Positions 41,720-59,063 of a stretch of DNA of 64,000 nt are shown one piece after another (the first letter of the stretch is position 1; each line of letters opens with the position of its first letter). Made by a program: the position numbers and the translations under genes. Where the stretch lies: positions 1,600,001 to 1,664,000 of the forward strand of contig OZ253555.1 of assembly GCA_965262725.1 (NCBI GenBank). Direction: 5' to 3'. Below the pieces are notes generated by a model. The model did no database searches and had not been told where the DNA came from. It was given only the letters and a program-made list of their open reading frames with translations. The DNA is from Dehalococcoidia bacterium (lineage in GTDB: Bacteria > Chloroflexota > Dehalococcoidia > UBA2979).

Positions 41720-43881
41720 GGACCGTCTTTTTGCGCGCATTGGAGTCCGATGACAAAGCGTCGGCTCTGCTTGGAGCGATCCGCGGATCAGCCTCGGAGC
41801 GAGGTGGACGTTTCGATGTGCAGGCGGCCGCGTTCGGGCGCGTGCCGCGTTCACCATTCGCGTATTGGGTAAGCGATCGTCTGCGCACTGTCTTTGCCGA
41901 CCTCCCACCTTTCGAGGCGGACGGGCGTGTCGTGAAACAAGGCCTTGCGACTGCCGACGACTTCCGGTTCGTGCGCGCGTGGTGGGCTGTTCCGGTACGC
42001 GTCTTGGGTTTGCGGTGGTTCCCGTACACAAAAGGCGGGAGCTTCTCGCGTTTCTACGCCGACACCCATGTGCTCGTGAACTGGCACCGCAGTGGGGCTG
42101 AAGTGAAGGCGAACGTCAACGAACGCGGGCAGATTCGCTCGAACGTCTGGATGCTTCGGGATACCGCGGCCGAATACTTCTTTCGTCCAGGCATCACCTG
42201 GCCGCTCCGGGGGGTTCGCTACTCAGCTCAGGCCGTTCCCGCGGAATGCGTGTTCAGCGTCGCAGGTAAGATGGCCTTTGCTGATCCCGCTGATCTTCTT
42301 TGCGTGCTTGCACTATTCAATTCGACTGCCTTCGACAAGTTCATCGCGTTTTTTGCTGGGAAGATCGGTGGGGTGCAGTATGAGGTCGGCCTTATCAAGT
42401 ACGTGCCGATCCCGCTCCTGAGTGCCGATGATGAGCGCTGTCTAGCCACACTCGCCAGCCGCGGTTGGTCGATGAAACGCTCGCTGGACTCGGCTGTTGA
42501 AAGCTCGCACGCCTTCATAGCCCCCGCGCTTGTGCGGGTTGAGGGTGCCCCGCTGAATGCTCGCGCGGTAGCGTGGGCTGAGCACATTCACCTTGTAGAA
42601 GACGCGCTTGCGGGGATACAGGCGGAGATCGACGAGCGCTGCTTCGAGCTCTACGGCATTGATGAGGCTGATCGGCGCGCCATGACGGAAGGCTTCGACA
42701 CCTCGGGCGACGCTGCAGAGGATGATGACGCCGAGGTCGACAACTCAGCCGCCGAAGCCGAGGATGCGGATAGCGCCGAAGCCGACGCGACCGGTCTGAC
42801 CGCAGAGCTGGTGTCGTGGGCGGTGGGGGTGGCCTTCGGGCGCTTCGATGTGCGGCTCGCTACTGGCGAGCGGGCACTTCCGGCGGAGCCTGATCCGTTC
42901 GACCCGCTGCCGATCTGCTCACCCGGGATGCTCACTGGCGACGACGGCCTGCCGCTCCGCGCGGCGCCTGAGGGCTACCCACTCGCCTTTTCCGAGGATG
43001 GCGTCCTCGTCGACGACCCAGGCCACGCGCGCGATCTCACCGCCGCGGTACGCGCCATCTTCGACACGGTGTTCGGTGCCGACGCCGACGCCCGCTGGCG
43101 TGAGGCGGCCGAGCTCCTCGATCCAAAGGAGCGCAACCTGCGCAGCTGGCTCGCGAAGGCCTTCTTCGAGCATCACCTCAAGCGCTACTCGAAGAGCAGG
43201 CGGAAGGCGCCGATCATCTGGCAGCTCGCCACGCCGTCGGCGAGCTATTCGGTCTGGCTCTACGCGCACCGCCTGACAGCGGACAGCCTCTTCCACGTCC
43301 AGAACGACGTCGTCGCGCCGAAGCTTGCGCTCGAGGAGCGCCGACATACAGCGCTCGTGCAGGCCGCTGGTCCGAACCCGCCTGCGAGCCAGCGCCGAGA
43401 GATCGCCGAGGTGGAGACGTTTGTCGAGGAGTTGCGAGTCCTGCTCACTGAAGTGAGGCGGGTGGCGCCGCTCTGGCAGCCCGACCTCAACGACGGGGTC
43501 GTGCTCACGATGGCGCCGCTCTGGCGTCTCGTGACCCAACATCGGGCGTGGCAGCGGGAGCTGAAGTCGGCCTGGGATGCGCTCTGCGCCGGGAGGTACG
43601 ACTGGGCGCAGAGCGCAATGCACCTCTGGCCTGAGCGCGTCGTGCCGAAGTGCGCCGAGGATCGCAGCCTCGCGATCGCGCACGGCCTGGAGGAAGTCTT
43701 CTGGGTCGAGGATGCGACCGGGAAATGGGAACCGCGACATTCGCCAACGCGCTCGGTCGAGGAGCTCGTCAGTGAGCGGACGTCACCTGCCGTGAAGTCA
43801 GCGCTGCAGAGCCTGGTCGATGCACCCGCACTCGCTTCCAATGGGCGGGGGCGACGTTCTCGAGCGGGGTCGTCGACGTGA
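41716..43881 (+). CDS. PglX C-terminal/specificity subunit 1 (TRD1)
   Basis: PRSPFAYW, QGLATADDFRF, WFPYTKGG, RPGITW, RKAPIIWQL, DLNDGV, YDW; ATGA overlap with pglX. Confidence 0.88.
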   Translation: MRTVFLRALESDDKASALLGAIRGSASERGGRFDVQAAAFGRVPRSPFAYWVSDRLRTVFADLPPFEADGRVVKQGLATADDFRFVRAWWAVPVRVLGLRWFPYTKGGSFSRFYADTHVLVNWHRSGAEVKANVNERGQIRSNVWMLRDTAAEYFFRPGITWPLRGVRYSAQAVPAECVFSVAGKMAFADPADLLCVLALFNSTAFDKFIAFFAGKIGGVQYEVGLIKYVPIPLLSADDERCLATLASRGWSMKRSLDSAVESSHAFIAPALVRVEGAPLNARAVAWAEHIHLVEDALAGIQAEIDERCFELYGIDEADRRAMTEGFDTSGDAAEDDDAEVDNSAAEAEDADSAEADATGLTAELVSWAVGVAFGRFDVRLATGERALPAEPDPFDPLPICSPGMLTGDDGLPLRAAPEGYPLAFSEDGVLVDDPGHARDLTAAVRAIFDTVFGADADARWREAAELLDPKERNLRSWLAKAFFEHHLKRYSKSRRKAPIIWQLATPSASYSVWLYAHRLTADSLFHVQNDVVAPKLALEERRHTALVQAAGPNPPASQRREIAEVETFVEELRVLLTEVRRVAPLWQPDLNDGVVLTMAPLWRLVTQHRAWQRELKSAWDALCAGRYDWAQSAMHLWPERVVPKCAEDRSLAIAHGLEEVFWVEDATGKWEPRHSPTRSVEELVSERTSPAVKSALQSLVDAPALASNGRGRRSRAGSST

Positions 43882-46038
43882 AGACCGTCTTCCTCCGCGT
43901 GCTAGAGGCGCGGGACAAGGGCCCGGCTCTGCTCGGAGCCATCCGCCGACCGGGAGCCTCCGGAGCAGGTCGGCGATTCGAGGTCTCCGTTGCGAGTTTT
44001 GGCGGGGTGCCTCGGTCTCCTCTTGCCTACTGGGTGAGTTCGAGGGTGCTCAGCCTGTTCGCGGACCTGCCACGCCTCCAAGCAAATGGGCGTGTCGCTG
44101 CATCGGGCGGCAAGACCCTCGACGACTTTAGGTGGATCCGCGGATCGTGGGAGATCGTTCCTGAGGCGGTGGACCGATGGCTTGGCTACGCCAAGGGCGG
44201 CACCTTCTCACCCTACTACGCTGACGTTCACCTCCTGCTTGACTGGCGCGATGACGCGAGGGCGCTGAAGACTTACTTGGTCAACTACCGCGAGAGTCGG
44301 GGGTGGTCACCTAACTGGACGGCCGAGTTGCATGGCAGCGACCATTATCGCCGGCCTGGACTGACCTGGCCCAGACGCACGCAGAGTGGGCTCGCGCTTC
44401 GGGCGATGCCGGCCGGGTGTGTGTTCGCGGACAAGGGTCCAGCTGCGTTCGTTGCGAACGACTGTGGCAGCCGCCTACTGGCGCTTCTGGCAGTTTCGAA
44501 CTCCATGGCTTTCAAGTCGCTTGTCGAGCTCCAAATGGCATTCGGGTCGTTTGAGGTTGGCGTCATCCAGCGCGCCCCTGTTCCCCTCACTGTTGGTGGC
44601 GATGAGAGCGGGCTCACACAACTGGCTTACCGTGCGTGGTCGTCGAAGCGCTCCTTGGACACAGTCGTCGAGACGTCGCACGCCTTCACGCTTCCTGCGC
44701 TACTCCAGTCCGAAGGCGGCTCGCTCGCTGGTCGCGCGGCAGCGCGGGCTGAGCACGTGCGCCGCATCGAAGACGAGCTTGCGGCCATCCAGGCGGAGAT
44801 CGACGAGCGCTGCTTCGAGCTCTATGGGATCAACGAGGAGGACCGCCGCGTCATCACCGAGGGCTTCGGCGGCTCGGGCGACGCCTCGGTAAGTGACGAC
44901 GGCGACGGCGACGGCGAATCAGACGATGCCGGGGCTGCGCAGGATGGGGTAGCTGAGGCGGTTGGCCTGACGGCGGAGTTGGCGGCGTGGGCGGTGGGTG
45001 TGGCATTCGGGCGCTTCGATGTGCGGCTCGCCACGGGGGAGCGAGCGCTCCCGGACGAGCCCGAGCCGTTCGACCCGCTACCGGTCTGCTCACCCGGGAT
45101 GCTTACCGGTGACGACGGCCTGCCGCTCACTGCGGCGCCCGAGGGCTACCCGCTCGCCCTCCCGGAGGATGGCATCTTCGTGGACGACCCCGGCCATACG
45201 CGGGATCACACCGCCGCAGTGCGAGCGGTCTTCGACGTCGTGTTCGGAGGCGACGCCGATGCGCGCTGGCGTGAGGCGGCGGAGCTCTTCGATCCGAAGG
45301 AGCGCAGCCTGCGCACCTGGCTCGCGAAGGCCTTCTTCGAGCATCACCTCAAGCGCTACTCGAAGAGCAGGCGGAAGGCGCCGATCATCTGGCAGCTCGC
45401 CACGCCGTCGGCGAGCTATTCGGTCTGGCTCTACGCGCACCGCCTGACAGCGGACAGCCTCTTCCACGTCCAGAACGACGTCGTCGCGCCGAAGCTTGCG
45501 CTCGAGGAGCGCCGACATACAGCGCTCGTGCAGGCCGCTGGTCCGAACCCGACTGCGAGCCAGCGCCGAGAGATCGCCGAGGTGGAGACGTTTGTCGAGG
45601 AGTTGCGAGTCCTGCTCACTGAAGTGAGGCGGGTGGCGCCGCTCTGGCAGCCCGACCTCAACGACGGGGTCGTGCTCACGATGGCGCCGCTCTGGCGTCT
45701 CGTGACCCAACATCGGGCGTGGCAGCGGGAGCTGAAGTCGGCCTGGGATGCGCTCTGCGCCGGGAGGTACGACTGGGCGCAGCTCGCAATGCACCTCTGG
45801 CCCGAGCGCGTCGTGCCGAAGTGCGCCGAGGACCGCAGCCTCGCGATCGCCCATGGTCTCGAGGAGGTCTTCTGGGTCGAGGACGCGAACGGGAAGTGGG
45901 AACCGCGACATTCGCCAACGCGCTCGGTGGAGGAGCTCGTCAGTGAGCGGACGTCACCTGCCGTGAAGTCAGCGCTGCAGAGCCTGGTCGATGCACCCGC
46001 ACTCGCTTCCAATGGGCGGGGGCGACGTTCTCGAGCGG
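42620..46038 (+). repeat. About 1.25-kb direct repeat pair (about 42620-43867 and about 44790-46038)
   Basis: The C-terminal halves of the two specificity genes. 43147-43867 and 45318-46038 are near-identical at an offset of 2171. Confidence 0.92.
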
Positions 46039-46061
46039 CGTCGACACTGGGGGCGGATTAG
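43878..46061 (+). CDS. PglX C-terminal/specificity subunit 2 (TRD2)
   Basis: Paralogue of the previous gene with a divergent TRD (SGGKTLDDFRW, YAKGG, RPGLTW); GTGA overlap. Confidence 0.88.
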   Translation: MKTVFLRVLEARDKGPALLGAIRRPGASGAGRRFEVSVASFGGVPRSPLAYWVSSRVLSLFADLPRLQANGRVAASGGKTLDDFRWIRGSWEIVPEAVDRWLGYAKGGTFSPYYADVHLLLDWRDDARALKTYLVNYRESRGWSPNWTAELHGSDHYRRPGLTWPRRTQSGLALRAMPAGCVFADKGPAAFVANDCGSRLLALLAVSNSMAFKSLVELQMAFGSFEVGVIQRAPVPLTVGGDESGLTQLAYRAWSSKRSLDTVVETSHAFTLPALLQSEGGSLAGRAAARAEHVRRIEDELAAIQAEIDERCFELYGINEEDRRVITEGFGGSGDASVSDDGDGDGESDDAGAAQDGVAEAVGLTAELAAWAVGVAFGRFDVRLATGERALPDEPEPFDPLPVCSPGMLTGDDGLPLTAAPEGYPLALPEDGIFVDDPGHTRDHTAAVRAVFDVVFGGDADARWREAAELFDPKERSLRTWLAKAFFEHHLKRYSKSRRKAPIIWQLATPSASYSVWLYAHRLTADSLFHVQNDVVAPKLALEERRHTALVQAAGPNPTASQRREIAEVETFVEELRVLLTEVRRVAPLWQPDLNDGVVLTMAPLWRLVTQHRAWQRELKSAWDALCAGRYDWAQLAMHLWPERVVPKCAEDRSLAIAHGLEEVFWVEDANGKWEPRHSPTRSVEELVSERTSPAVKSALQSLVDAPALASNGRGRRSRAASTLGAD

Positions 46062-46062
46062 C

Positions 46063-48600
46063 TTGCACGCACTCCACGACTACCTCTGTCAGCAGCTCGA
46101 GGATCTGCTCCGCAAGCGTTCGGTCGTCGTCTTCTACGACCCTCGCCGGGAGTTCGCACCCTTCTTCCGTGAGTTGAGCGACGGTGGCTCAGAGGCTGGG
46201 CAGCTCCGGCACGTTGTCATCGGTTCACTGCCGGCAGCACTCGTGGAGTACAACGGCTCGTTCTACCAACTTCGCGCTGAGGTTGAGGAGCTGGTGGGGG
46301 AGGATCGACCGGCGCCGCTCATGCTCTACGTCCCTGGCGTCAATCGAGACCCGAAGAACTCCGTACTCATGGAACTCGAGCTCGGCGGCAGCCGTTACGA
46401 GCAGCCGCTCAACCGTCTCGCGCTCAACGTTCTCCGCAAGAGCTTCTCCGACGGACAGATCGATGAACTGCTCCGCCTGGGAAGCACGACTTACGAGGAC
46501 ATCGTGTCGTTCCTCCAGCAGGCTGAGGAAGGCGAACCCGCGTCGGCGCTCCGCGGGCTCTTTGGAGGCCTCCGTAGCGAGCCGCTCATCGCCGAGTGGC
46601 TCGCAAGTGTCGAGCGCGACGATGCGATTTCCGAAAGGGATGCGACTTCTGAGCTGTTCAAGTTGCTCGAGACCCGCGTGGGCCTGGCCCTCACCGAGGC
46701 GTCATCGCTCAGCGAAGCGCGGGAGCGGGCGGCACGGTACGTGCTCATTGGTGAGTTCCGGGCCGACCTCTCTGGAGAGCCTCCCCCGTCGATCTCGCTC
46801 GTCCCAGTCCCCCAGTCGAAGGAGCACCAGGCGCGCATCGCCGAGATAGCTCGCCTGCTTCGCCGTGACCGGCCAGACCGGTATGCCGCACTGGCAGACA
46901 GGGTGGAGCGAGAGCTGGGACTTCAGGATGCGCCCATCGCGCCCTCTCAGCTCGGTGCCGTGGACACGTTCGGATTCGAGGAGAGACGTCTGCTTGAGCG
47001 CGTCGGTGAGCTCATCGCGACCAAGGCATATGGCGAAGCCCTGGACGTGATCTCGGGCCGTCGACGCAGCTTCTGGGTGGACCGCGATGTGCCACGCCAG
47101 GCGCAGTGGGAGGCCAGCCGCCTCATGGCGACCTTGGGCACTGCAATTGCTGCGGCTCGTGTAGAGCTTCCGAAGTTTGGGGTCGATGCGACGGCGTGGG
47201 TCGAGGCGTATGCCGCCGACCGCGGCTGGCATGAGATCGACCGGCTGCACCGTGCGCTTGAGACCTGGGTCGCGAAGATGAGCGAGGAGCCCGAGAGCGA
47301 ACAGGCGTTGGCGGTCATCCGTCGCGAGCAAGAGGACCTGCTTCAGCTGATGGCGGAAGGATTCGGGAAGGCCTTCCAAGCAGCTGGCTGGACGGTTCCG
47401 AACATCCTTCACCAGACGGGCATCTATCCGCAGGTCGTGGAGTCGCTGCCGGGCCCGGTCGCTTACTTCTTCGTCGATGCAATGCGTTTCGAGATGGGCG
47501 CCGAGCTGGCGCAGCAGCTCCAGGGCGCAAGCGACCTCAGGCTGCGGCCCGCCATCGCGGCGCTCCCGTCGATTACGCCGGTCGGCATGGCCGCGCTCCT
47601 GCCGGGCGCATCGGCGAGCTTTTCGGTCGTGGAGGGGCGTGGGCGAATCGCCTCCCGCATGAACGGCACCGCAATGCCAGGCATCACTGAGCGTATGAGG
47701 TACTTGAAGGCGCGGGTTGTTGGTCTCCGCGAGCTGACGCTGGACGACGTTCTGCGTCGCCGGATGCCCGAGCTTCGTCGGAGCGTCGATTCCGCGCCAC
47801 TGGTGATCGTTCGTTCGGACGAGATCGACGCGCTCGGGGAGAACGTGCAGGACTCCACTGCGCGAGCCGCCATGGAGAGTGTAATCGGCAACATTGCTCG
47901 GGCCGTACGAAAGCTGGCCGCCGCCGGCATCGAGCGGTTCGTGATCACGGCCGATCACGGGCACCAGTTCGCCATCCGCAAAGAAGAAGATATGCGTACG
48001 GACAATCCGGGCGGCGACGCTCTCGAGGTTCACCGCCGTTGTTGGATCGGGCGTGGTGGAACCACGCCGCCGGGCACCGTCCGGGTGACCGGAGCGGAGC
48101 TCGGCTATGACACCGACCTCGAGTTCGTCTTCCCGACCGGGCTCGGTGTCTTCAAGGCTGGCGGCGGCCTCAGCTTCCATCACGGCGGGTTCAGCCTCCA
48201 AGAACTGGTGATCCCAGTCGTCAGCCTCCGCATTGCAGCAGAACCGGTGAAGCCGCAAGGCGGCCAGCGGGTTCGTCTCGAAGACGTCCCTGCGCGCATC
48301 ACGAATCGGATGTTCGTTGTCCAGGTCGTTTCAAGCGCCGACCTCTTCGATACGGAGCCGCTGTCGCTCCGGGTCGTCTTGCTCTCGGGAGACGAACAGG
48401 TCGGCCAAGCAGGCATGGCGACTGGGGCGGAACTCGATAACGTAAAGAGCGAACTGCAGCTCGCGCCCGGGACGGCTGCCAGCGTGGGTATGATGCTCAT
48501 GCGCGATGACATCACTTCGCTGCGCATCCTAGTCCAAGACGCCGTCACCGATGCAGTGCTCGAGCAGTCGGAATCCATCCCGGTGCAATTAGGGATATAG
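46063..48600 (+). CDS. pglZ: BREX alkaline-phosphatase-fold protein PglZ
   Basis: VDAMRFEMG, LPSITPVGMAALLP, ITADHGH, HGGFSLQE; TTG start. Confidence 0.93.
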   Translation: MHALHDYLCQQLEDLLRKRSVVVFYDPRREFAPFFRELSDGGSEAGQLRHVVIGSLPAALVEYNGSFYQLRAEVEELVGEDRPAPLMLYVPGVNRDPKNSVLMELELGGSRYEQPLNRLALNVLRKSFSDGQIDELLRLGSTTYEDIVSFLQQAEEGEPASALRGLFGGLRSEPLIAEWLASVERDDAISERDATSELFKLLETRVGLALTEASSLSEARERAARYVLIGEFRADLSGEPPPSISLVPVPQSKEHQARIAEIARLLRRDRPDRYAALADRVERELGLQDAPIAPSQLGAVDTFGFEERRLLERVGELIATKAYGEALDVISGRRRSFWVDRDVPRQAQWEASRLMATLGTAIAAARVELPKFGVDATAWVEAYAADRGWHEIDRLHRALETWVAKMSEEPESEQALAVIRREQEDLLQLMAEGFGKAFQAAGWTVPNILHQTGIYPQVVESLPGPVAYFFVDAMRFEMGAELAQQLQGASDLRLRPAIAALPSITPVGMAALLPGASASFSVVEGRGRIASRMNGTAMPGITERMRYLKARVVGLRELTLDDVLRRRMPELRRSVDSAPLVIVRSDEIDALGENVQDSTARAAMESVIGNIARAVRKLAAAGIERFVITADHGHQFAIRKEEDMRTDNPGGDALEVHRRCWIGRGGTTPPGTVRVTGAELGYDTDLEFVFPTGLGVFKAGGGLSFHHGGFSLQELVIPVVSLRIAAEPVKPQGGQRVRLEDVPARITNRMFVVQVVSSADLFDTEPLSLRVVLLSGDEQVGQAGMATGAELDNVKSELQLAPGTAASVGMMLMRDDITSLRILVQDAVTDAVLEQSESIPVQLGI

Positions 48601-48603
48601 GCC

Positions 48604-50646
48604 ATGATCAACGTGCAGGCTCCCGCCCGCGACGCGCTAGACGACAAGGTCAACCGCATCTTTGCCGGAAAGGCCGTGAGAAAGGACCTCGTCCGCAAGG
48701 TCAAGGTCGGTGCCAACGTTCCCGTCTTTGTTCTGGAGTACCTGCTCGGGAAGTACTGCGCTTCCTCGGACGAGATGGCAATCCAGATGGGGTTGCAGGT
48801 CGTCAACAACACTCTCGCCGAGAACTACATCAGGCCCGACGAAGCGCAGCGTGCTCAGAGCAAGGTAAAGGAGCTGGGGCGCCACACGTTCATCGATAAG
48901 GTGAAAGTGCGCTTGACGGACTCCGAGTACTGGGCTGAGGTGACGAATTTCGGTCACCGCTTTGTCCACATCCCTGACCACTACGTTCGTGATTTCGATC
49001 GCCTGCTCACCGGTGGTATCTGGGCGCAGATCGACATGCGGTTCGAGTATGACGAGGAATCGCGGGGCAAGAACCCGTTCTGGATTGAGAAGCTCACGCC
49101 GATCCAGCTCGCTACATTCGATCTTGATGAGTACCGCGGGCTGCGTGCCGAGTTCACCACTGACGAGTGGCTGGACCTCATGGTCCGGAGCATGGGCTAC
49201 GAGCCGTCGATCATGGATCGGAGACTGAAGCTCCTCTTCCTGCTCCGCCTCATCCCACTGTGCGAACGCAACTACAACTTGGTCGAGCTTGGTCCCAGGG
49301 GAACCGGTAAGAGTTACGCGATTCAGGAGTTCTCACCCTACGCGGCTCTGCTGACGGGGCCGACGACGGTCGCCAATCTCTTTGGCCATATGAGCGGCAG
49401 GCAGAAGGGTATGGTCATGATCTGGGACGTCGTCGGCTTCGACGAGGTCGGGGATCTCCAGAAGATGCCGAAGGAAGTGATCACCACGCTCAAGACCTAC
49501 TGTGAGTCTGGTCAGTTCCAGCGTGGGCAAGAGGCGATGGCGGGCTACGCCAGTATCGCCATGTTCGGGAACACTCAGCAACCGGTAGACGTGATGGTCC
49601 AGACCGGGCACCTCTTCGCACCGCTGCCCGAGGTGATCCGAGATGACATGGCATTCATCGACCGCATGCACTTCTACCTCCCGGGGTGGGAAGTGCCAAA
49701 GATGCGCAACGAGCACTTCACGGACCATTACGGATTCGTTGTCGACTACCTCGCGGAGGCGCTTCGCGAGCTGCGCAAGCTGAACTACACTGAGACTCTC
49801 GATCACGCTTTCTCGCTCGGCTCCCACTTGAACGCTCGCGACCGCAAGGCGGTTCGTCATACCGTCGCCGGTCTCGTGAAGATCCTGCATCCCAACGGCG
49901 ACGTGTCGAAGGACGACATGGAGGAGATCGCTGCGCTGGCGCTCGAAGGTCGTCGGCGAGTCAAGGAACAGCTCAAGAAGATGGGTTCCTTCGAATATCA
50001 CCAGACTTCGTTCAGCTACATCGACAACGAGTCCGGTGAAGAACACTTCGTTGGTGTACCCGAGCAAGGTGGTCGCGATCTCATCTCCCCGGACCCGCTC
50101 GCACCGGGCACGATCTACGCGGCTTCCGTGACAAACGACGGAACAGTCGGTCTGTATCGGGTGGAAGTCACAACGTCCAACGGAACGGGGAAGCTGCGCC
50201 CGGCGGGAGCACTGCGGGGGCTCGTGAGAGAGTCCGTCCAGCGTGCGTTCGGCTACCTGCAGTCGAATCAGACTTCGTTTGGCGTGGCGAGCGCACTCGA
50301 CGGTTCAGACCTCCACGTCGAAGTCGTTGATCTGCTGGGCAATCGCGCCGATGCAGAGATCGGGGTCGCGTTCTTCATCGCCGCCTACTCAATCTTGCGG
50401 CGGAGCGCCCCACTCCCGGCGCTACTCGTTCTCGGTGATCTCAGCATCCAGGGGAACATCAAGCCGGTGACGTCGCTCGTTGAACCATTGCGACTCGCGA
50501 TGGACAACGGTGCGAAGCGCGCACTGATCCCGATCGAGAATAAGCGCCACTTCTTCGACGTTCCTGCGGACATCCTCGAGATGGTAGATCCGGTTTTCTA
50601 CGGCGATATGCGAACGGCTGCCTTCAAGGCCTTGGACCTGGGCTGA
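48604..50646 (+). CDS. brxL: BREX Lon-like AAA protein BrxL
   Basis: NVPVFVLEYLLGKYC, ELGPRGTGKS, FDEV, and a Lon-like C-terminal domain. Confidence 0.93.
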   Translation: MINVQAPARDALDDKVNRIFAGKAVRKDLVRKVKVGANVPVFVLEYLLGKYCASSDEMAIQMGLQVVNNTLAENYIRPDEAQRAQSKVKELGRHTFIDKVKVRLTDSEYWAEVTNFGHRFVHIPDHYVRDFDRLLTGGIWAQIDMRFEYDEESRGKNPFWIEKLTPIQLATFDLDEYRGLRAEFTTDEWLDLMVRSMGYEPSIMDRRLKLLFLLRLIPLCERNYNLVELGPRGTGKSYAIQEFSPYAALLTGPTTVANLFGHMSGRQKGMVMIWDVVGFDEVGDLQKMPKEVITTLKTYCESGQFQRGQEAMAGYASIAMFGNTQQPVDVMVQTGHLFAPLPEVIRDDMAFIDRMHFYLPGWEVPKMRNEHFTDHYGFVVDYLAEALRELRKLNYTETLDHAFSLGSHLNARDRKAVRHTVAGLVKILHPNGDVSKDDMEEIAALALEGRRRVKEQLKKMGSFEYHQTSFSYIDNESGEEHFVGVPEQGGRDLISPDPLAPGTIYAASVTNDGTVGLYRVEVTTSNGTGKLRPAGALRGLVRESVQRAFGYLQSNQTSFGVASALDGSDLHVEVVDLLGNRADAEIGVAFFIAAYSILRRSAPLPALLVLGDLSIQGNIKPVTSLVEPLRLAMDNGAKRALIPIENKRHFFDVPADILEMVDPVFYGDMRTAAFKALDLG

Positions 50647-51809: not shown

Positions 51810-52343
51810 TCACCGGGCGCCGCTCACGACAGCGACAATCACGCCCGCGGTACACGCGAGGCCATAGAAGCACATGAGAACCAACGGAATCTGCTTCTCC
51901 AAGCGGGTGAAGGGCCGATAGAGTGATGGGTTCTCCCCTTTGCCAAGCGCAACCCACTCAGCCCCGAAGACGGCCGCTGGGAGGTGTTGCTCCAGCAAAC
52001 CAATGATAGAGAACTTCGCAGTGTTCAGTTGCCGGAACGACGTGACCATTCGCCACCATACGAAGCACGTGAAGACGCCCGTCATTCCTACAGCCACGCC
52101 CACCCCGCCACCGACGGGAGATAGTACGTCCCCTTCACGAAGCAGGATGCCGGTCGCGATCAACAGCGCCGAGTTGATCGACAGAAAGAATGTATTCGCT
52201 GTTTGACGACGGGCTACGACGCGCTCGGACGACTCGACTATCAGCCGGTACTGATCGAGCAGTAATTGTTGCGCCCTATCGCTGGAGGAAGGCGAACCAC
52301 CGGGGAACAATACATCGTCGAGAGCCGCCTCATCGTCGGTCAT
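51810..52343 (-). CDS. Three-TM membrane protein (RipA/SLATT-like pore effector candidate)
   Basis: LLDQYRL...RRQTANTFFLSINS...WWRMVTSFRQLNTAKFSII...LE; ATGA-coupled to a TIR gene. Confidence 0.75.
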   Translation of the reverse strand: MTDDEAALDDVLFPGGSPSSSDRAQQLLLDQYRLIVESSERVVARRQTANTFFLSINSALLIATGILLREGDVLSPVGGGVGVAVGMTGVFTCFVWWRMVTSFRQLNTAKFSIIGLLEQHLPAAVFGAEWVALGKGENPSLYRPFTRLEKQIPLVLMCFYGLACTAGVIVAVVSGAR

Positions 52344-52726
52344 ACCGTCACACCAGAGAGCTTTCTCATGATCGCGTCGATCTGCCACGGGATCGGCGCA
52401 ACTCCGAGTTCCTCGAGAGCGGCGGGGAATCGCTGTATGTCATCCCTCAGCCACACCGCGATCACGTCATTCCCGAGTTCCGCGCTCTTGCGGACTTCCC
52501 AGTTCACGGCATCACTGCGGTAGGTGTTCTTTCCGACGAGGCAGATGGTCGCAGAGCACATCCGCAGCAATCTCTCAACGTTCGCCCTCCAAGCGTTTTC
52601 AAATGACTCTTTCACCGCGTAGTCGCGGCATTCGAGGTCGAAGGGGCTGCTCACCACTTGCTCTCGAAAGGTGTTCGAGAGTGGCTGATCCTCCATCGCG
52701 AAGCTGAGGAATACGTTTAGCGTCAT
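52340..52726 (-). CDS. TIR domain protein (DUF1863/ThsB-like) 3
   Basis: VFLSF, TICLVG, SDAVNWEV with the catalytic Glu. Confidence 0.85.
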   Translation of the reverse strand: MTLNVFLSFAMEDQPLSNTFREQVVSSPFDLECRDYAVKESFENAWRANVERLLRMCSATICLVGKNTYRSDAVNWEVRKSAELGNDVIAVWLRDDIQRFPAALEELGVAPIPWQIDAIMRKLSGVTV

Positions 52727-52811
52727 GGGATACTCCTCTCCGCACGTCCGGCGCCCGAGGCAGCACGATCACACCGGATCTACGTCGCGAGACGCGTCGT
52801 AGCGATAGACC

Positions 52812-53201
52812 CTATCGGGATCCTGCGATCAGCCTCTTGAGGTTCTCCCATGTCCACTTGTACATTATATCAGCCGTTGCGGCAGATCGCGGCTTCTGAC
52901 ACGTCTTCTTGCTACGTCCGTGCAGGAGGAAGACATCATTGCCTTCGTCTAGTGTAATGTCGAATTCAACCGAGACACCCGTTGCGGAGTTCGTATGCTC
53001 GCCACAAATGATTATAGTAACATCCGTTCTCCGGATGCGACTACGAACTTTGTCCTTCCAGTTTCCAACGAACGGCTCCCTCAGCGACCAGTCTTGAATA
53101 CTGAACGGTGAGTCAGGGTTCTTCGCCTGGCCGACGAGCAAGTTGCGAAGGTCTTCGTCATGTTCGAAGTCAAAGCTGATGAATGCGCGCTTGGCAGCCA
53201 A
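52812..53201 (-). CDS. TIR domain protein (DUF1863/ThsB-like) 2
   Basis: RAFISFDFEHD, DWSLREP, GVSVEF, YKWTWENLK; TTG start with RBS. Confidence 0.85.
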   Translation of the reverse strand: MAAKRAFISFDFEHDEDLRNLLVGQAKNPDSPFSIQDWSLREPFVGNWKDKVRSRIRRTDVTIIICGEHTNSATGVSVEFDITLDEGNDVFLLHGRSKKTCQKPRSAATADIMYKWTWENLKRLIAGSR

Positions 53202-53498
53202 TGGGGTGATCCCCCTCTCGTCACCTGAGACTCGGAAGACGGAAACACTCTCGGATCCAGCCGAGCCTAGGCAACAGCGTATCACGCCGGAACGCGGCGG
53301 GCGTCTCCATTGTGGATCGGCGGCCAGGGTCGCCGGCCCCACCCGGATATCGTGGCTCCAAAGGGGTACGCACAGCGCAAAGTCGGTCGCTCGCCGCCGT
53401 TGACGGCGACCACGGGGGATCTCAGTTCGTGGTCGGCAGGACCCCACAGCAAGAACTCCTTGCGCTGCCGCCGTGCATTCCCTTCAGCTTGGTGCTCC

Positions 53499-53909
53499 TC
53501 ATCCAACGGCGCGAATCGCAGAGACAATGCTGTCTGTGTTCCACGCGACAATTGCATCGGCTGCATTTCGCACCGTGGCCGAGATCTTCGTGTTACCTCG
53601 AGGCTTCACCGCAATGACGGGTTTCGGTCTACTGAAGCCTGTCTTTGCCAACTTCACCTCGGTTGTTATCCATTTGCTGTATGTAGAGTAGACTCCGCCC
53701 ATCACAAGGATCACGTGACACGGCTGCATATGATTGGAAATCGCTTGCCGCAGTGCACGGTCGGTCGGTGCGTTGTGAATCGGGTCGTCGGGGGGTACGG
53801 AATAATTCCTGAATACGAAGTACGGTCGTTCCTCCAACAGACCAACAAGGCGCTCGTAGTGGTCTGAGTATCTCCACGAATGACTGATAAACAAGTTGTA
53901 CTGTCTCAA
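53499..53909 (-). CDS. TIR domain protein (DUF1863/ThsB-like) 1
   Basis: YNLFISHSW, NYSVP, SKWITTEV, KPVIAV, AWNTDSIV; AAGGAGG RBS. Confidence 0.88.
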   Translation of the reverse strand: MRQYNLFISHSWRYSDHYERLVGLLEERPYFVFRNYSVPPDDPIHNAPTDRALRQAISNHMQPCHVILVMGGVYSTYSKWITTEVKLAKTGFSRPKPVIAVKPRGNTKISATVRNAADAIVAWNTDSIVSAIRAVG

Positions 53910-53963
53910 GTGCACCTCCTTCAATGTCGCCGCGTTGGCCGCGAGGCGCTGATGCTAGCAGCC

Positions 53964-55403
53964 TCACTGCGCGGAAGCGCCAAGGGCCGCTCTGCACGCA
54001 GAATTGGCGATGGCGATGGCGAGGTCCTTTCTGGTGTCGGCGTACTTGAGCTGGCGGAGCGCTTCTCGGTAAGCGACGCAGAGTAACTCCAAATCGCTCG
54101 CGGCAGCGCCAGAAGCCCAGCTTCGACAGGCGCGAACGAACTCTGGCACCGGGCTCGCCGCGGCCCACCTCTCTACGTCAAACCAGTGCTCTGCTGTTTC
54201 GGCGGTGGCCCAATCCCCGATCGCCCCTCGGCCTTGGGGATGAAAGAGCAGACTTAGTTCCAGCACGATCGGATCCAGGCAGGCGGGTGCGGCGCCCAGA
54301 TTCCCGAAATCGATCATGAGCGGCTCACCTAGCGAGTCAACCAGGATATTCGCTCCATGGAGATCCCCATGCTGATAGCATGTCGAGACCGTCGCCCCGG
54401 ACCCTTCGAAGGCCCCGTCGTCACGGTCGCCGAGCTCAACCTGATAGTCGACGAGAACCGAATCTGGGACAACCTCACGACGAAAGTCGCGGATTCGCAC
54501 ACTGCTGTTCTCCTTCGTATTGAGCCATGGCTCGACCTTTTGGTGGAGCTTCGCAACGGCGGCCCCTGCCGCCGCATCGTCATCCGCTATGAGGTTGAAG
54601 AGAGAGCGGTCGAAACCCGTTACCAGTTGGTAGAAGACCGCCCCTCTGGACCCGAGGCCGGCGGTGATCTCGTCAGCATGGCTCGCAAACGTAGTTGGAC
54701 CGAGGAGCGTAGGGAGGCATCGGTTGTACTGCTCGATCTCGCGGAGAATTGCACTCCTACTATCGAACTTCGCGAAGACTAGCGCCCGCACGCCCGTCCG
54801 ACTCTTCACGGTTGCTCTATAGGTCTGGGCTCCGGACAGACCTCCGCCAAGGGGCTGGATGTGGATCACTGATCCATCGTTCCGCCGTGCGAAGACTTGC
54901 AGGCCGAGTTCTACGTGGGCTGGAATTAGCATCTTCGCTTCTCGATCTACGACAATGCGACTCAGCTCGTCCCGATTCGCTACGAATTCTCTTGTCCACG
55001 CTATCGCTTCCGGAAGTTCTTCTTTCGAAAACTGCACAACCATAGGGAAGTTCTCGCGCGTTCCGAAGATGTCCTTGTTCTCTCCCAAGCTCAGCGACTC
55101 ACGGATATTCTTCGCGGTGGCGTACCCCGTAAGAAACATGCAGGGCACGCCAGGACGGATCTCTCGAGCTCGCGCTTGAACGAACAAGCCCTGGGTCTCG
55201 TCGATGGCGAGCCCGCCGTCTGAAGGAGGAATACGAAGGTCACAGATGATGAGGTCGAACTCCTCGCCCTCGTCCTCTATGAGTGCGACCGCGGACGCAC
55301 TACTCCGAGCCGGGACAACACGGAAACTACTGTCGAGTGACACAAGTTCGGCCGACACTTCTTCGAGCCAGTGTTCCTCATCCTCGACGAAGAGAACTCG
55401 CAT
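53964..55403 (-). CDS. Response-regulator receiver fused to an APH/protein kinase-like domain
   Basis: Receiver motifs VEDE, ICDL, LTG; kinase motifs GGGLSGA, FAK, HGDLHGANIL, IDFG. Confidence 0.88.
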   Translation of the reverse strand: MRVLFVEDEEHWLEEVSAELVSLDSSFRVVPARSSASAVALIEDEGEEFDLIICDLRIPPSDGGLAIDETQGLFVQARAREIRPGVPCMFLTGYATAKNIRESLSLGENKDIFGTRENFPMVVQFSKEELPEAIAWTREFVANRDELSRIVVDREAKMLIPAHVELGLQVFARRNDGSVIHIQPLGGGLSGAQTYRATVKSRTGVRALVFAKFDSRSAILREIEQYNRCLPTLLGPTTFASHADEITAGLGSRGAVFYQLVTGFDRSLFNLIADDDAAAGAAVAKLHQKVEPWLNTKENSSVRIRDFRREVVPDSVLVDYQVELGDRDDGAFEGSGATVSTCYQHGDLHGANILVDSLGEPLMIDFGNLGAAPACLDPIVLELSLLFHPQGRGAIGDWATAETAEHWFDVERWAAASPVPEFVRACRSWASGAAASDLELLCVAYREALRQLKYADTRKDLAIAIANSACRAALGASAQ

Positions 55404-56410
55404 TAGCGTAACTCGGTGGGCTGTGGCCATCTAATCTCGCACGCGACTCCGCGCTGCTCGCGTGGCCGGAGTTCGACGGTGCCACCGAGGGTGGCCATCG
55501 CGCGCCGAGCAAGGGGGAGACCGATGCCGAAGTGCTCGCTCTTTGGCTTGCCCGTCGCCCACATCTCGAACACTTGGTCGGCCCCAGCCGGCAACCCGAT
55601 CCCTTCGTCTAGCACGACGATCCAATAGTCCCGGTCTGTGATCCCGTAGTTGATCACGACTGCAGGGGATGGCAGCACGGTGTCGCCCGACATCGGGACG
55701 GCTAGTCCAACACCCCGTCTCCTCGCGTTGACGGATCCGGTTTCAGATCCAGTACTGGTGCCCTCCGCAGGGGCTCGCCTGTCAGCGCTTGCACGGTCCT
55801 CCATAGCCTCCACAGCGTTTCTCACAGCCTGAGCCAGCGCCAGCTGTACTAGACTCTCGTCGCCTACCACATGGGCTGGATCTATGCCGACGGCCATGAC
55901 CATAGACCGGTCCTCCTCTTCAAGCTCGGACTCGACCGTCTTTGCAACCAGATCAGAGAGATTGAACTCCGTCCAGGTCGGAGCGCTAGCGGACTCGCCC
56001 AGAAGCTCGGCAGCGCGTAGGAACGAGACGATCCTCTCGATTGAACGACTCGTGTTACTGCTCTCGAAGTCAGCGAGTTCTCGCCTGGCACGAAGGCGCA
56101 ACAAGCCGACTAGAGGCTTAAGTTCGTGTAGCAGCATGGTGGTCGCTTCGGCGGTGGCTTGAGCGCGGACCTCGCGGGATATCTCGCTCAGTTCTTCTGT
56201 CTCGAACCTGGGTGTAAGGGCAACGCCATCGAGGCGATCACGCGCGCGACCGAGTGCTGATCGAACCCACGAGTCCGTTTCGCGGGCGAGAGCTGCGTCG
56301 ATGTCTGCGCCGTGGGTTGACGTTGCAGCAGTGCGAAGAGCCCGAGCTCCCCGGAGGCGCTCGGATGCGTCGGCCGACTTCAGCAGGCTGAAGGCTTCCG
56401 CTGCGTCCAC
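55403..56410 (-). CDS. Soluble HEAT-repeat histidine kinase
   Basis: HEAT-like ERLRGARAL/WVRSAL; H-box LHEL, N-box RNAVEA, DEGIG, GIGL. No TM segment. Confidence 0.88.
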   Translation of the reverse strand: MDAAEAFSLLKSADASERLRGARALRTAATSTHGADIDAALARETDSWVRSALGRARDRLDGVALTPRFETEELSEISREVRAQATAEATTMLLHELKPLVGLLRLRARRELADFESSNTSRSIERIVSFLRAAELLGESASAPTWTEFNLSDLVAKTVESELEEEDRSMVMAVGIDPAHVVGDESLVQLALAQAVRNAVEAMEDRASADRRAPAEGTSTGSETGSVNARRRGVGLAVPMSGDTVLPSPAVVINYGITDRDYWIVVLDEGIGLPAGADQVFEMWATGKPKSEHFGIGLPLARRAMATLGGTVELRPREQRGVACEIRWPQPTELR

Positions 56411-58254
56411 TAGATGCCTGGAAAGACCCGGCCGTAGAACTCGGCCCGGCGCTGGAATGCCTTGAGACCGCCCTCCATCACACTCGTCACTGCGCGAACA
56501 CTCTCCTCATCGTTGAGTTTACCCTCGTGGAGCACGAAGGCACGGCGGCCGTCAGACCCCATGAGCACTATCCTGTCGGCCTCCCCGAGGACGGGGATGT
56601 TCGCATTGTGCGAAGCGAAGATCATCTGGTCGTTGGGTCGTCGGCTGCGCAACGTCCCGACAAGGGTGTTAGTCACGAATGAATTGTCGAGGTGGTCCTC
56701 CGGCTGATCGACAATCAAGGTTGGTAGAGCAGCCTGTAGCAGGACCGAAAGCACAACCGTGCATCTCTGACCAATCGAGAGTGCCCCCGTGGGTTTGTAC
56801 TCGGTACCGTCGAGAAGCTCAAGAGTAACGCCATCGCCGACCGGAGCAGAAATGATTGCCGCAGTGTCGCTGCTCCTCAGGTGAGCGATCATAGCGGCGG
56901 CGCGTTCTTGCGAAATCTCGGCAACATCAGCCAGCGCAAATGCATCGTCTGCTTCGACCGTCGTCACGAGCTCTAAGGGCGACATACGTGATGCGACTCG
57001 TGGCGCCAATGTGTTGTAGTGCAGGCCACTGCCGACGAGGTTGGCGATTATCGCATTCACATAGGCGCTGACATCCGCAGCCCGTGTTACGGTCGCGCGG
57101 ATGCTTGGACCAAGCTCCTGGTTGAGCTGCTGGGCAACCAATTGCCTGCTTTCGAATTGAAGATCAAGTGTCCGATCGAGGTGTAGGTATGTTTCGCCGC
57201 GACGGTGACTAAGAACTCCCACTTGTTTAGTCTTCTCGGCATGCGTGTTCTGGATGGCCGCGAGTTGCCCGTGTTTCTCCCTGAGTGTGCCGACTTCCCT
57301 CGCGATCGCGCCCAGCCCCTCATCGAGCTCTTCGAGTCGTTGCCTAAGCGCCCGGCTGTGCTCCTCAATTTGGGAACTCTCTATCCGCTTCTGGTCTAGG
57401 ATCGTGTCCACTTCAGAACTCCCGGAAGAAAGCTCAACGAGCGCGTGGCGTAATGCCGAGACCACCTCGCCCAAGTGCTTGCGGATGTTGGAGAGGGCGG
57501 ATTCATCTCCAGCACCAGGTGGCCACTGAACAGTTGGGGCCCGAGCAAGGACACCATCAACCATGGCCGTGTAATTCGCGAGTGCTGTAGCGTTTGCGTG
57601 AAGCGCTGCGATCTGCAACGACAGGCGCTCACCGACCTGTTGAAGGTCGCTCAGCTCCTTACGCTCAGTAGTAGTCGCCGCCGCTCTTTGGAGCGCGTCA
57701 TCCTGTCGGCGAGCAGCCTCGAGTAGGGCAGAGGGTGTTTCGGCTAGTGCGGCAGCCTGTTCATTCAGCCTGGACGCCTCGGCGATGAGCAGACGAAGCT
57801 CGGACGTCTCGGCCCTGAGTCGCGAAATCAGCCCCAAAGCGTGACTGCGGCGGTCGCCGGCATCCGGTCGAAAGCGGTCGAGCAGGGCGATCCGTCCCTG
57901 CGCCTGAGCTCCAACTGCCTCGACTTCGTTCTGAGCAAGCACGAGCGGCGGAGCCCCTGTGGACTCGGTGCGAGGGGACTCGTCCTTCGCAGAGCGCGAG
58001 ACCCTTATCTGTCCTGCAGCGGTCTCGAGAGTCACGGTGACCAAGCCGTCTTGCAGAACCGCCTGAGCATGGCTCCGACCTCGCTCCGCAGCTTCGCTAG
58101 TCAGCGCGCCGGCATCGAGGCAGAACCGAACGAGCTCAATGAGCGATGTCTTGCCGGTACCGCGCCCGCCAATAAGGACGGTCATCCCTGGAGCGATCGG
58201 AAGATCAAGCCCGTCGAGGAAGCCTCCATCGACCTGCAAGTGTGTGATCGCCAA
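56410..58254 (-). CDS. Coiled-coil ABC ATPase (TrlF/Ppl-like, no PHP domain)
   Basis: GGRGTGKT, LSIGQR, IVDQPEDHLD, ASHNANIPV. TTG start after CAGGAG, with a TATACT -10 box at 58278-58283. Confidence 0.88.
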   Translation of the reverse strand: MAITHLQVDGGFLDGLDLPIAPGMTVLIGGRGTGKTSLIELVRFCLDAGALTSEAAERGRSHAQAVLQDGLVTVTLETAAGQIRVSRSAKDESPRTESTGAPPLVLAQNEVEAVGAQAQGRIALLDRFRPDAGDRRSHALGLISRLRAETSELRLLIAEASRLNEQAAALAETPSALLEAARRQDDALQRAAATTTERKELSDLQQVGERLSLQIAALHANATALANYTAMVDGVLARAPTVQWPPGAGDESALSNIRKHLGEVVSALRHALVELSSGSSEVDTILDQKRIESSQIEEHSRALRQRLEELDEGLGAIAREVGTLREKHGQLAAIQNTHAEKTKQVGVLSHRRGETYLHLDRTLDLQFESRQLVAQQLNQELGPSIRATVTRAADVSAYVNAIIANLVGSGLHYNTLAPRVASRMSPLELVTTVEADDAFALADVAEISQERAAAMIAHLRSSDTAAIISAPVGDGVTLELLDGTEYKPTGALSIGQRCTVVLSVLLQAALPTLIVDQPEDHLDNSFVTNTLVGTLRSRRPNDQMIFASHNANIPVLGEADRIVLMGSDGRRAFVLHEGKLNDEESVRAVTSVMEGGLKAFQRRAEFYGRVFPGI

Positions 58255-58376
58255 CGGCTGCTCCTGTCGTCTTAGTGAGTATAGGCGTTCCAACGTGCCA
58301 CATTCACGGGATGCCGGGGGCCAATCCGGGTGTGTTCCGCGGCCCGTGGGGAGTGGCAATGGGATCGGTAGCCAGT

Positions 58377-58463
58377 GCGAGGATTGAAACACGATGACTC
58401 AGGAGCTCGACTTCACGCACTCGCTGGGAGCGCCCGGCCTACGGGCCGGGCGCGGATTGAAAC
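58377..58463 (+). CRISPR. Orphan CRISPR mini-array: partial repeat, 36-nt spacer, full 37-nt repeat
   Basis: GCGAGGATTGAAAC, then spacer 58391-58426, then GGAGCGCCCGGCCTACGGGCCGGGCGCGGATTGAAAC (10-bp stem, ATTGAAAC end). Confidence 0.72.
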
Positions 58464-58505
58464 GACCCGCGCGTGCTGGTTACATGTGGCATCGCCGCCA
58501 CAACT

Positions 58506-59063
58506 TCAGCTCAGCAGCGCCACGACCGCGCCGAGCGCGATGAACGGCCCGTAAGGCACGCGGGCACCCCAGCCAGCTCGCCGGGTGACCAGCAGCACCG
58601 CGGCCGTCACGCCTCCCGCGATCGCGGTCAGGAGGCCGGCCGATAGCACCCCTGGATAGCCAACGACCACTCCCATCAGCGCGGCCATCTTCACGTCGCC
58701 GCCACCGAGTCCACCTCCGCTCAGTCCGCGGATGGCGATCGCGACGGTGAGCGCGCCGAACCCGCCCGTGAGCGCCTCGGCCACCCCGCGGTCGGGCCAG
58801 GCGCCGGAGACGGCGAGCGCCAGGACCAGCGCCGGGTAGACGATCCGGTTCGGGATGACGCGGCGGCGGAGGTCCGACCAGGCCAGCGCCATGAAGATCG
58901 CACTGAAGCCCGAGCCCAGGGCGATCTCCACAGGCTCCCGCCCGCGCATCCCGAGGATCGCCCCGACCAGGAGGGCCGCTCCCGCGAGCACCGGGTACGC
59001 GGCCCACGGCTCCCGGGCCCTCACCAGCCACGCGGGGCGCCCGCCCGCGACGTGCCCCGTCAC
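58506..59063 (-). CDS. Prepilin peptidase (A24)
   Basis: SDLRRRVIPN, GGGDVKM, VPYGPF. Confidence 0.9.
   Translation of the reverse strand: MTGHVAGGRPAWLVRAREPWAAYPVLAGAALLVGAILGMRGREPVEIALGSGFSAIFMALAWSDLRRRVIPNRIVYPALVLALAVSGAWPDRGVAEALTGGFGALTVAIAIRGLSGGGLGGGDVKMAALMGVVVGYPGVLSAGLLTAIAGGVTAAVLLVTRRAGWGARVPYGPFIALGAVVALLS

Follow-up and report, generated by a model that had tools for sequence, protein, structure and literature searches.

What is the function of three overlapping genes whose products are an ABC ATPase, a histidine kinase and a protein that joins a receiver domain to a second kinase? They lie in a 64,000-nt stretch of the genome of a Dehalococcoidia bacterium (Chloroflexota; GenBank assembly GCA_965262725.1, contig OZ253555.1, positions 1,600,001 to 1,664,000). 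This whole stretch is called the window here, and all coordinates are counted from its first base. A first-pass annotation of the sequence had proposed the trio as a candidate phosphorelay defence system. Our results favour a self-contained three-gene conflict system on mobile DNA, acting against phages and/or plasmids by a phosphorelay, with a probability of about 0.6. The cassette most likely works like the Detocs defence system and belongs to no named family.

Three genes form a conserved mobile cassette

The minus strand of the window is filled from 53964 to 58392 by three long open reading frames (ORFs), in the order A-B-C:

56410..58254, minus strand: gene A, ABC ATPase, 614 aa
55403..56410, minus strand: gene B, histidine kinase, 335 aa
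53964..55403, minus strand: gene C, receiver-kinase, 479 aa

The first-pass annotation had placed the genes and their 1-nt stop/start overlaps (junctions 56410 and 55403) correctly. At the A/B junction the last base of the TAG of A is the first base of the GTG of B at 56410 (ctaGTGgac), and at the B/C junction the last base of the TAA of B begins the ATG of C at 55403 (cgcTAATGcga). Read from this ATG, C opens with the usual receiver start MRVLFVEDEE; with an alternative in-frame ATG upstream, at 55430, the B/C overlap would be 28 nt. Gene A is best read from a TTG at 58254, six bases 3' of an AGGAG. In an alignment with 27 relatives, 15 had their start in the same column and five more within five columns; the other seven were longer because ORF calling took the first in-frame start. 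From these junctions, genes A, B and C are predicted to be translationally coupled.

A profile scan of metagenome contigs gave 111 relatives of C. We kept 80 loci, 52 of them with a C match at E < 1e-25. Among these 52, a B homologue was found directly upstream of C in 40 of the 41 loci with at least 900 nt of upstream sequence, and an A homologue further upstream in 29 of the 30 loci with at least 2800 nt. The exceptions were L027, in which an IS110 transposase occupied the place of A, B was shortened (237 aa) and C was full-length, and L050, in which a 295-aa HNH ORF preceded C. The A/B junction, inspected in 38 loci, was a 4-nt overlap in 19 and a 1-nt overlap in five. Even the divergent loci L058 and L061 retained the order ATPase, HATPase_c protein, TCAD9 protein. 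No conserved fourth gene was found among the 122 flanking ORFs of the 24 long loci. The A-B-C order in dozens of unrelated contigs means that the trio is not a chance arrangement; it is a conserved mobile cassette.

Domain composition of the three proteins

The proteins had been read as an ABC ATPase, a cytoplasmic histidine kinase without a sensor domain and a receiver fused to a kinase, all with intact catalytic motifs. Pfam, structure models and Foldseek bore out this reading of the domains, and across 20 sequences of A, 32 of B and 73 of C the catalytic residues were either invariant or conserved to at least 90%. The main motifs are the following:

58147..58170, minus strand: gene A, Walker A motif GGRGTGKT (residues 29-36); G29, G32, G34 and K35 invariant in 20 of 20 sequences
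56683..56781, minus strand: gene A, ABC signature LSIGQ (492-496) and Walker B/D-loop TLIVDQPEDHLDN (512-524)
56123..56128, minus strand: gene B, H-box His95-Glu96, predicted autophosphorylation site; invariant in 32 of 32 sequences
55239..55241, minus strand: gene C, Asp55 in DLRIP, predicted phospho-acceptor; invariant in 73 of 73 sequences
54303..54371, minus strand: gene C, catalytic loop HGDLHGAN (345-352) and DFG (365-367); H345, D347, N352 and D365 invariant in 73 of 73 sequences

In A the head motifs are split by ~350 residues of coiled coil. A profile search of the PDB matched the heads with Rad50/SMC and the region 130-380 with coiled-coil chains. The Walker B/D-loop reads DQPEDHLD (516-523), the Q-loop residue is Q108 and the H-loop residue H549; S493, G495, Q496, D516, Q517, P518, E519, D520 and H521 were also invariant in the 20 sequences. 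A thus carries Walker A, Q-loop, signature, Walker B, D-loop and H-loop around a long coiled coil, as an SMC/Rad50-type ABC ATPase does. From Pfam, AAA_21 was recognized with 28.6 bits (cut-off 27) and SMC_N with 31.3 bits, under its cut-off of 40.

The closest described relatives of A were TrlF and Ppl. The NCBIfam equivalog model TrlF_fam_ATP (NF045780) was matched with E 3e-64 and 218.2 bits, over profile positions 291-944 of 944. Membership of the TrlF family, for which the curated cut-off is 350 bits and the full 944-position profile is required, is not reached. The C-terminus of Ppl was matched with E 8.5e-16 (PADLOC) and 1.3e-19, and A falls outside Ppl as well: NF042955 gave 69.7 bits against a cut-off of 1000, over profile positions 759-878 only, and the PADLOC Ppl model PDLC02208 was covered only at positions 777-889 of 894. 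Because A matches TrlF only from position 291 and Ppl only in the last ~120 residues, it lacks their N-terminal domain, and A is best described, from these profile matches, as a TrlF/Ppl relative without that domain. The missing ~290-residue part of the TrlF profile is presumably a PHP domain, as in Ppl. TrlF carries the annotation "histidinol phosphatase".

In B, the only Pfam domain was HATPase_c (E 1.7e-9, 38.5 bits, cut-off 26.4), with no HisKA match at E ≤ 0.1. The AlphaFold model of B (predicted local distance difference test, pLDDT, 86) has a HEAT-like part (1-62), a dimerisation and histidine phosphotransfer hairpin with H95 (69-140) and a catalytic and ATP-binding (CA) domain of the Bergerat fold (147-329). 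With Foldseek, the model matched CpxA, HK853, ZraS (TMt 0.73), CusS and BceS (8g3a_D, E 1.7e-9). The N-box is RNAVEA, the G1 box DEGIG and the G2 box GIGL, and H95, E96, N198, D268, G270, G272, G295 and G297 were invariant in the 32 sequences. B has accordingly the histidine in its phosphotransfer hairpin and the N, G1 and G2 boxes in a Bergerat fold that mark a class I histidine kinase. The HEAT repeats that had been attributed to B stood in part. Four N-terminal helices are modelled as two HEAT-like hairpins (residues 3-60, pLDDT ~97), but Pfam HEAT_2, which matched eight of 12 N-termini of the B family, stayed below its cut-off in all of them (best E 4.2e-5, 24.2 bits, cut-off 27.7) and did not match the N-terminus of B in the window.

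C consists of a receiver (1-125), a linker helix and a TCAD9/APH-like kinase domain (~176-479). Pfam scored TCAD9 (PF19974) at E 1.2e-12 and 48.1 bits (cut-off 40), APH at E 1.3e-6, and Response_reg (PF00072) at E 8.2e-8 and 32.8 bits (cut-off 30.2). The receiver has its acidic pocket, acceptor Asp and conserved Lys, a score over the cut-off, and a Z of 16 to receiver structures. The kinase domain, likewise over its cut-off, keeps the catalytic Lys, Glu, HxD...N and DxG residues, with GGLSGA as the G-loop. D55, K127, G188, S190 and E222 were invariant in the 73 sequences, and E7, D8, D50, L189 and K212 at least 90% conserved. C was modelled as one confident body (pLDDT 94.2, predicted template modelling score 0.90), with the receiver packed against the kinase domain, a predicted packing that fits gating by phosphorylation.

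Foldseek placed the kinase domain of C, among its best solved matches, near APH(3')-Ia (E 2.3e-7), AmiN (amicoumacin kinase), LxmK, glucosamine kinase, maltokinase and choline kinase. Since these nearest solved folds are small-molecule or peptide kinases, a cell-killing protein-kinase activity of C is not implied. The nearest Atlas clusters of this domain were TCAD9/APH. A sequence search of the PDB with the C profile returned receiver matches only. In a wide structure search with the whole C model all 50 matches listed were receivers, so that this search was uninformative on the kinase domain. The cassette proteins had only generic kinase or receiver matches in PHROGs, and a single-sequence search of genome contigs with C gave one spurious 16-residue match.

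No membrane-like segment was found in A, B or C (Kyte-Doolittle, 19-residue windows). The most hydrophobic windows lay in the Walker B strand of A (1.87), in an insert of B (1.21) and in the kinase core of C (1.62), and none was membrane-helix-like, in agreement with the cytoplasmic location that had been given for B.

The TCAD9 kinase domain was also found in other settings. In L060 (300-7498), a receiver-TCAD9 protein of 553 aa directly follows a 1846-aa GAF-containing protein, which stands in place of the ATPase and the small kinase; by its domains this would be another wiring of the same effector. In L064 (4387-7957), L065 (3712-7291) and L081 (2798-5250), TCAD9/APH proteins of ~500-630 aa lie beside genes for ThiF-type E1, DUF6527 and Multi_ubiq, so that the domain, as judged by gene content, seems to occur in ubiquitin-like conflict operons. 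The available text of two papers (PMC10910872; PMC7159879) links TCAD9 to vWA-MoxR-VMAP systems. Taken with the ubiquitin-like neighbours, this link suggests that TCAD9 behaves as a reusable conflict-system module.

Genomic context and distribution

A low-GC island (57-67% GC, versus 72-78% in the backbone) extends in the window from ~30 kb to 58.45 kb, and the trio forms its end. The island also holds two transposases, BrxA, BrxB, BrxC, a split PglX, PglZ, BrxL, an 8xMP membrane protein and two ThsB-like TIR proteins. The BREX genes lie at 34890-50646, and BREX and the two TIR genes directly adjoin the trio. The trio sits in a defence island. The same-strand neighbours of the operon are the TIR genes and a prepilin peptidase gene.

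Elsewhere, the flanks of the 24 long loci had mobility genes (integrases, TrwC/TraI/MobA relaxases, a coupling protein, transposases and ArdC), defence genes (type I, III and IIG restriction-modification, DISARM DrmD/DrmMI, CapP, Schlafen/pAgo-like and STAND NTPase) and, further, DUF4062, RES-Xre and HipA. Such neighbours are typical of mobile cargo and of hotspots for defence genes.

Relatives of C formed 389 clusters at E ≤ 1e-30 among 1.84 billion representatives at 50% identity, nearly all of them 460-490 aa long. The named carriers of C were Cryobacterium, Arthrobacter, Pseudarthrobacter, Mycobacterium paragordonae, Rhodococcus, Rhizobium, Dehalococcoidia and Planctomycetota, and the cassette was spread over Actinomycetota, Alpha-, Beta- and Gammaproteobacteria, Dehalococcoidia and Planctomycetota. 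C was found in none of 400 other sampled genomes of the same phylum (up to four candidates scored per genome). The cassette is rare and patchy.

C was present in 47 plasmid records, seven of them conjugative: 36 from Piscirickettsia, three from Klebsiella, and one each from Rhizobium, Shinella, Phaeobacter, Rhodococcus, Leclercia, Caballeronia, Vibrio and Pantoea. A was matched over at least 80% of its length in 11 plasmid records. Nine of these, comprising all those with at least 30% identity, also held C; the remaining two matches were annotated TrlF proteins. On K. pneumoniae IncF and Rhodococcus plasmids the trio is annotated as "AAA family ATPase", "HAMP domain-containing sensor histidine kinase" and "response regulator" or "phosphotransferase". 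On the Piscirickettsia salmonis plasmids (e.g., NZ_CP013976.1), 34-36 records have a full-length C, and the A query matches only the last 134 residues, mostly in one of two places under "hypothetical protein (x2)"; the Piscirickettsia ATPase may be divergent or broken. No homologue was found among 50,697 phage records, a result that is neutral for a conflict function.

Weighing a conflict system against other functions

Several results weigh against a conflict system. PADLOC v2 recognized no family for B, only the receiver of C (PDC-M60B, 1.5e-6; PDC-M60C) and only part of A. A defence gene known to PADLOC lay within 4 kb in only ~8 of the 24 long loci, as a raw count. Many of the cassette neighbours were conjugation genes, which fit plasmid biology as well as defence. 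B of the window has an unusual disordered insert of 46 residues, absent from most relatives (mostly 292-309 aa long, versus 335), and the closest solved structures to the kinase domain of C are small-molecule kinases. A further weakness is in the predicted A-B complex. Its three runs gave ipSAE values of 0.55, 0.55 and 0.52, versus 0.00 for the best of three controls, with a contact agreement of at least 48% and a partner pLDDT of at least 68. Of 157 solved complexes, 116 attained the pass mark, and so did two of 215 mismatched pairs; with an ipSAE ≤ 0.60, only 18 of the 157 solved complexes attained it, together with both passing mismatches. The models lend weak support to a contact between A and B.

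The conjugation neighbours point to the main rival, a housekeeping regulator of plasmids or integrative and conjugative elements. The ATPase would here monitor the DNA of the element (replication, transfer or damage), and the relay would tune the kinase for maintenance, transfer or entry exclusion. The cassette does often stand directly beside relaxase or coupling-protein genes (L014, L015, L017 and L033; beside MobF in Rhodococcus pdjl-6-1), but its position relative to transfer genes is not fixed, and it occurs also in chromosomal islands without transfer genes, beside BREX, restriction-modification or DISARM. The 47 plasmid records, with the seven conjugative ones among them, speak for a plasmid function, yet the cassette is far too rare and patchy for a core one. 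Similarly, NCBI annotation gives A the Gene Ontology term "double-strand break repair", whereas the closest relatives of this ATPase include the anti-phage protein Ppl, and the relay has no DNA-binding output domain. A recognized defence neighbour in only about one third of the long loci is in line with housekeeping. On balance we consider such a role unlikely.

Mobile elements can also be stabilized by addiction, and the cassette could be a module similar to toxin-antitoxin systems, in which the relay and the ATPase restrain a kinase toxin and any effect on phages is secondary. Plasmid or island sites beside toxin-antitoxin pairs (Fic/VbhA; RES-Xre in L033; HipA in L053) and the tight translational coupling would suit such a module, as would the toxicity of Detocs on loss of its buffering receiver, reported in the available text of the Detocs preprint (10.1101/2023.01.24.525353). 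However, no small labile antitoxin-like gene is present, and simple addiction would hardly repay the cost of three large enzymes, each with invariant motifs for nucleotide binding or catalysis and two of them dependent on ATP. L027, moreover, lost A to the IS110 insertion and kept B (237 aa) and C, which argues that the loss of A is not lethal. Addiction is therefore improbable as the function of the cassette.

Very improbable is a two-component-switched small-molecule kinase that serves resistance or metabolism, for example by phosphorylating an antibiotic or metabolite: the best solved matches of the kinase domain (APH(3')-Ia, amicoumacin kinase, glucosamine kinase, maltokinase and choline kinase) and the Pfam APH match (1.3e-6) would allow it, but the flanks of the cassette show no conserved genes for transport, biosynthesis or catabolism, its obligate partner is a soluble SMC/Rad50-like ATPase and not a ligand-binding sensor, its context is defence islands and mobile elements, and a small-molecule substrate is compatible with a conflict system too, so that only the purpose of resistance or metabolism is at stake.

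Proposed mechanism

For the conflict system that we favour, we infer that A is the sensor and the relay its output; the direction of control and the phenotype have the same standing. The main argument is domain replacement: in A the N-terminal domain is absent, and a kinase and a receiver-effector always follow. TrlF and Ppl carry their output, a PHP phosphoesterase, on their own N-terminus, and the phosphorelay appears to replace this missing output of A. B, without a sensor domain, would need a partner.

In this scheme, a dimer of the SMC/Rad50-like ATPase A would sense an invader cue, either foreign DNA ends or structures, or a phage protein. A would then control B, probably through the N-terminal HEAT-like hairpins of the kinase. 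B would autophosphorylate on His95 and pass the phosphate to Asp55 of C, which would free the TCAD9/APH-like kinase domain from the hold of the receiver. The released kinase would phosphorylate a protein, a nucleotide or another small molecule. As an outcome, infection or plasmid establishment would be blocked, or the cell would arrest.

More tentatively, the cassette could be the first of its kind in two respects. An SMC/Rad50-like ATPase may report the invader through a His-Asp relay and not through a fused nuclease, and the effector may be a receiver-gated TCAD9 kinase that disables infection by phosphorylating either a component of the phage or a small molecule or nucleotide essential to it or the cell, and not by degradation of DNA, NAD or ATP. 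Such a combination is possible, and we would not yet count on it.

SMC/Rad50-like ABC ATPases are a well-understood sensor class (Ppl, Lamassu, Gabija, PARIS). The cassette joins this class to a minimal kinase and an enzymatic output, with each step separately mutable and assayable. It could reveal in what way a histidine kinase is switched by an ABC ATPase, and which role in immunity is played by the TCAD9/APH-like kinase, a domain shared with vWA-MoxR-VMAP and ubiquitin-like conflict systems. The cassette is also borne by conjugative plasmids of genera that matter in the clinic and in agriculture, where it may shape susceptibility to phages and plasmids.

Other features of the window

Two further features belong to the operon and its upstream region:

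58255..58505, minus strand: non-coding stretch between the prepilin-peptidase gene and A; right edge of the low-GC island; presumed promoter region
55661..55798, minus strand: gene B, insert of 46 residues (205-250) within the CA domain, modelled with low confidence; pLDDT < 50 at 227-244

Upstream of A, a simple scan found no sigma-70-like site, and promoter and terminator counts were at the level of shuffled sequence. The 10-mer GTTTCAATCC occurs twice there on the minus strand (58381-58390 and 58454-58463, 73 nt apart). In the whole window it has three matches with at most one mismatch, versus 1.19 expected, and nine of 100 shuffles reached three. The pair could be a regulator site, or nothing. 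We rejected it as a CRISPR-like repeat, with two copies only upstream of A and a window count near chance.

The split PglX (39806-46061, plus strand) consists of an N-terminal methylase ORF of the Eco57I/MmeI type (39806-41719), followed by two tandem ORFs of 727 aa (41698-43881 and 43878-46061). Both tandem ORFs match PDLC02532 end to end (E 4e-244 and 1e-202), and they resemble a specificity half that has been duplicated. Immediately downstream of the cassette are the ThsB-like TIR ORFs (52812-53447 and 53499-53924, minus strand), then the 8xMP octameric membrane protein (51810-52388; PF24838, E 1e-34). The TIR and 8xMP ORFs (51810-53924) had no PADLOC match at 1e-10; together they are a possible defence unit of TIR plus a membrane effector.

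To the left of the island we annotated an ADP-ribosylglycohydrolase (28275-29255) and a DSP-PTPase "Swiss Army Knife" phosphatase (29252-30058), followed by a DDE_3 transposase (30158-31300) and a DDE_Tnp_1 transposase (31340-32350). ARAGORN called a 79-nt tRNA-Ala(GGC) at 27870-27948 (plus strand) with the anticodon at position 32. The call lies inside several long ORFs and may be false. No att-type direct repeats of at least 13 nt were found between 58255-58700 and 22001-36300.

Comparison with known systems

To our knowledge, His-Asp signalling in bacterial defence is known only from Detocs and Ambrosia, both of which leave the sensing of infection unexplained. PADLOC v2 gave no full-length match to the trio (the presence of Detocs models in its library is unconfirmed). 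We found no published description of the cassette, in a search that did not extend to the candidate lists in the supplements to the papers on Detocs, Ambrosia and DefensePredictor, which could include it; the first-pass annotation, which knew of no experimental characterization, agrees with this literature. In the available part of the DefensePredictor paper (PMC13092281), a figure legend names HATPase and REC for a predicted system.

Detocs is a validated two-component relay defence for which the His and the Asp are needed, according to the available text of its preprint (Rousset et al., bioRxiv 10.1101/2023.01.24.525353), to which the following comparison is limited. The cassette resembles Detocs in its cytoplasmic kinase with a modelled N-terminal helical region, its receiver fused to an enzyme and not to a DNA-binding domain, and its modular effector. 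C has this fusion of a receiver with a non-DNA-binding enzymatic effector (Response_reg with TCAD9/APH). The MacSyFinder rule of the Detocs authors requires three genes, DtcA, the stand-alone receiver DtcB and the receiver-effector DtcC, and the cassette does not comply: no stand-alone receiver ORF accompanied it in the window or in the 24 long loci. Detocs has the "buffer" receiver DtcB and, in the text available, no ABC ATPase, whereas the cassette has an ABC ATPase in the third position and lacks a stand-alone receiver. DtcA is a large protein that contains TPR repeats, while B has 335 aa and two HEAT-like hairpins. The Detocs effectors listed are PNP (80%), a restriction endonuclease, TOPRIM and a transmembrane alpha/beta hydrolase, with no kinase among them, and the effector of the cassette is kinase-like.

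Ambrosia (AbrR, AbrA, AbrB, AbrC and AbrD) is likewise a validated anti-phage system, as given in the available text of its preprint (van den Berg et al., bioRxiv 10.1101/2025.09.30.679545). There, defence requires a histidine kinase linked to an ATPase as well as a receiver protein, and it is abolished by mutation of the receiver Asp, a likeness to the cassette. The Ambrosia relay is proposed in the same text to control, through a receiver with a wHTH (winged helix-turn-helix), the transcription of a methylase and an HNH nuclease, with an XRE repressor. A, B and C are without a methyltransferase, HNH nuclease, XRE or wHTH domain. The ATPase is a separate ABC protein in the cassette and, as far as that text goes, a GHKL module on the kinase in Ambrosia. 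Pfam HEF_HK and Response_reg_2 had no match in the trio at E ≤ 0.1.

Gene A has the head of the ABC ATPase and its coiled-coil body in common with Ppl and TrlF. TrlF genes, too, are found on conjugative plasmids; the two inspected were 2652 and 2604 nt long, with no TrlG-like partner annotated beside them. One of the loci, L086 (NZ_CP055413.1, 112211-114862), lies on a conjugative plasmid of Klebsiella grimontii, where brxL and a MobH relaxase flank the full-length TrlF-family gene, a position that echoes the BREX-adjacent cassette of the window. Photorhabdus TrlF pairs, in the part of its description available, with TrlG, an AlbA_2/HATPase_c_4 protein. Unlike TrlF, gene A is always followed by the kinase pair.

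A histidine kinase without its own sensor domain is known in BceS (PDB 8g3a), which relies on the ABC-type ATPase machine BceAB for its signal. BceAB and BceS are a membrane transporter and a membrane kinase, which control a DNA-binding regulator for antimicrobial-peptide resistance, while the cassette is all soluble and has an SMC/Rad50-like ATPase and a kinase output. An active APH-like kinase and receiver domains are reported among the effectors of vWA-MoxR-VMAP ternary conflict systems in the available text of Kaur et al., eLife 2020 (PMC7159879), which suggests that the APH-like kinase of conflict systems may act on low-molecular-weight substrates. The cassette differs from these systems: its TCAD9 domain comes under a full His-Asp relay that includes an ABC ATPase, and it has no gene for vWA, MoxR or VMAP.

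By its gene and domain content the cassette would thus be neither Detocs nor Ambrosia, and the PADLOC and literature check that the first-pass annotation had called for gave no full-length match and no description. That annotation had missed the two phosphorelay precedents, as these are described in the available preprint texts. Given Detocs and Ambrosia, the cassette would not be a new principle of defence, but rather a credible variant of phosphorelay-type defence.

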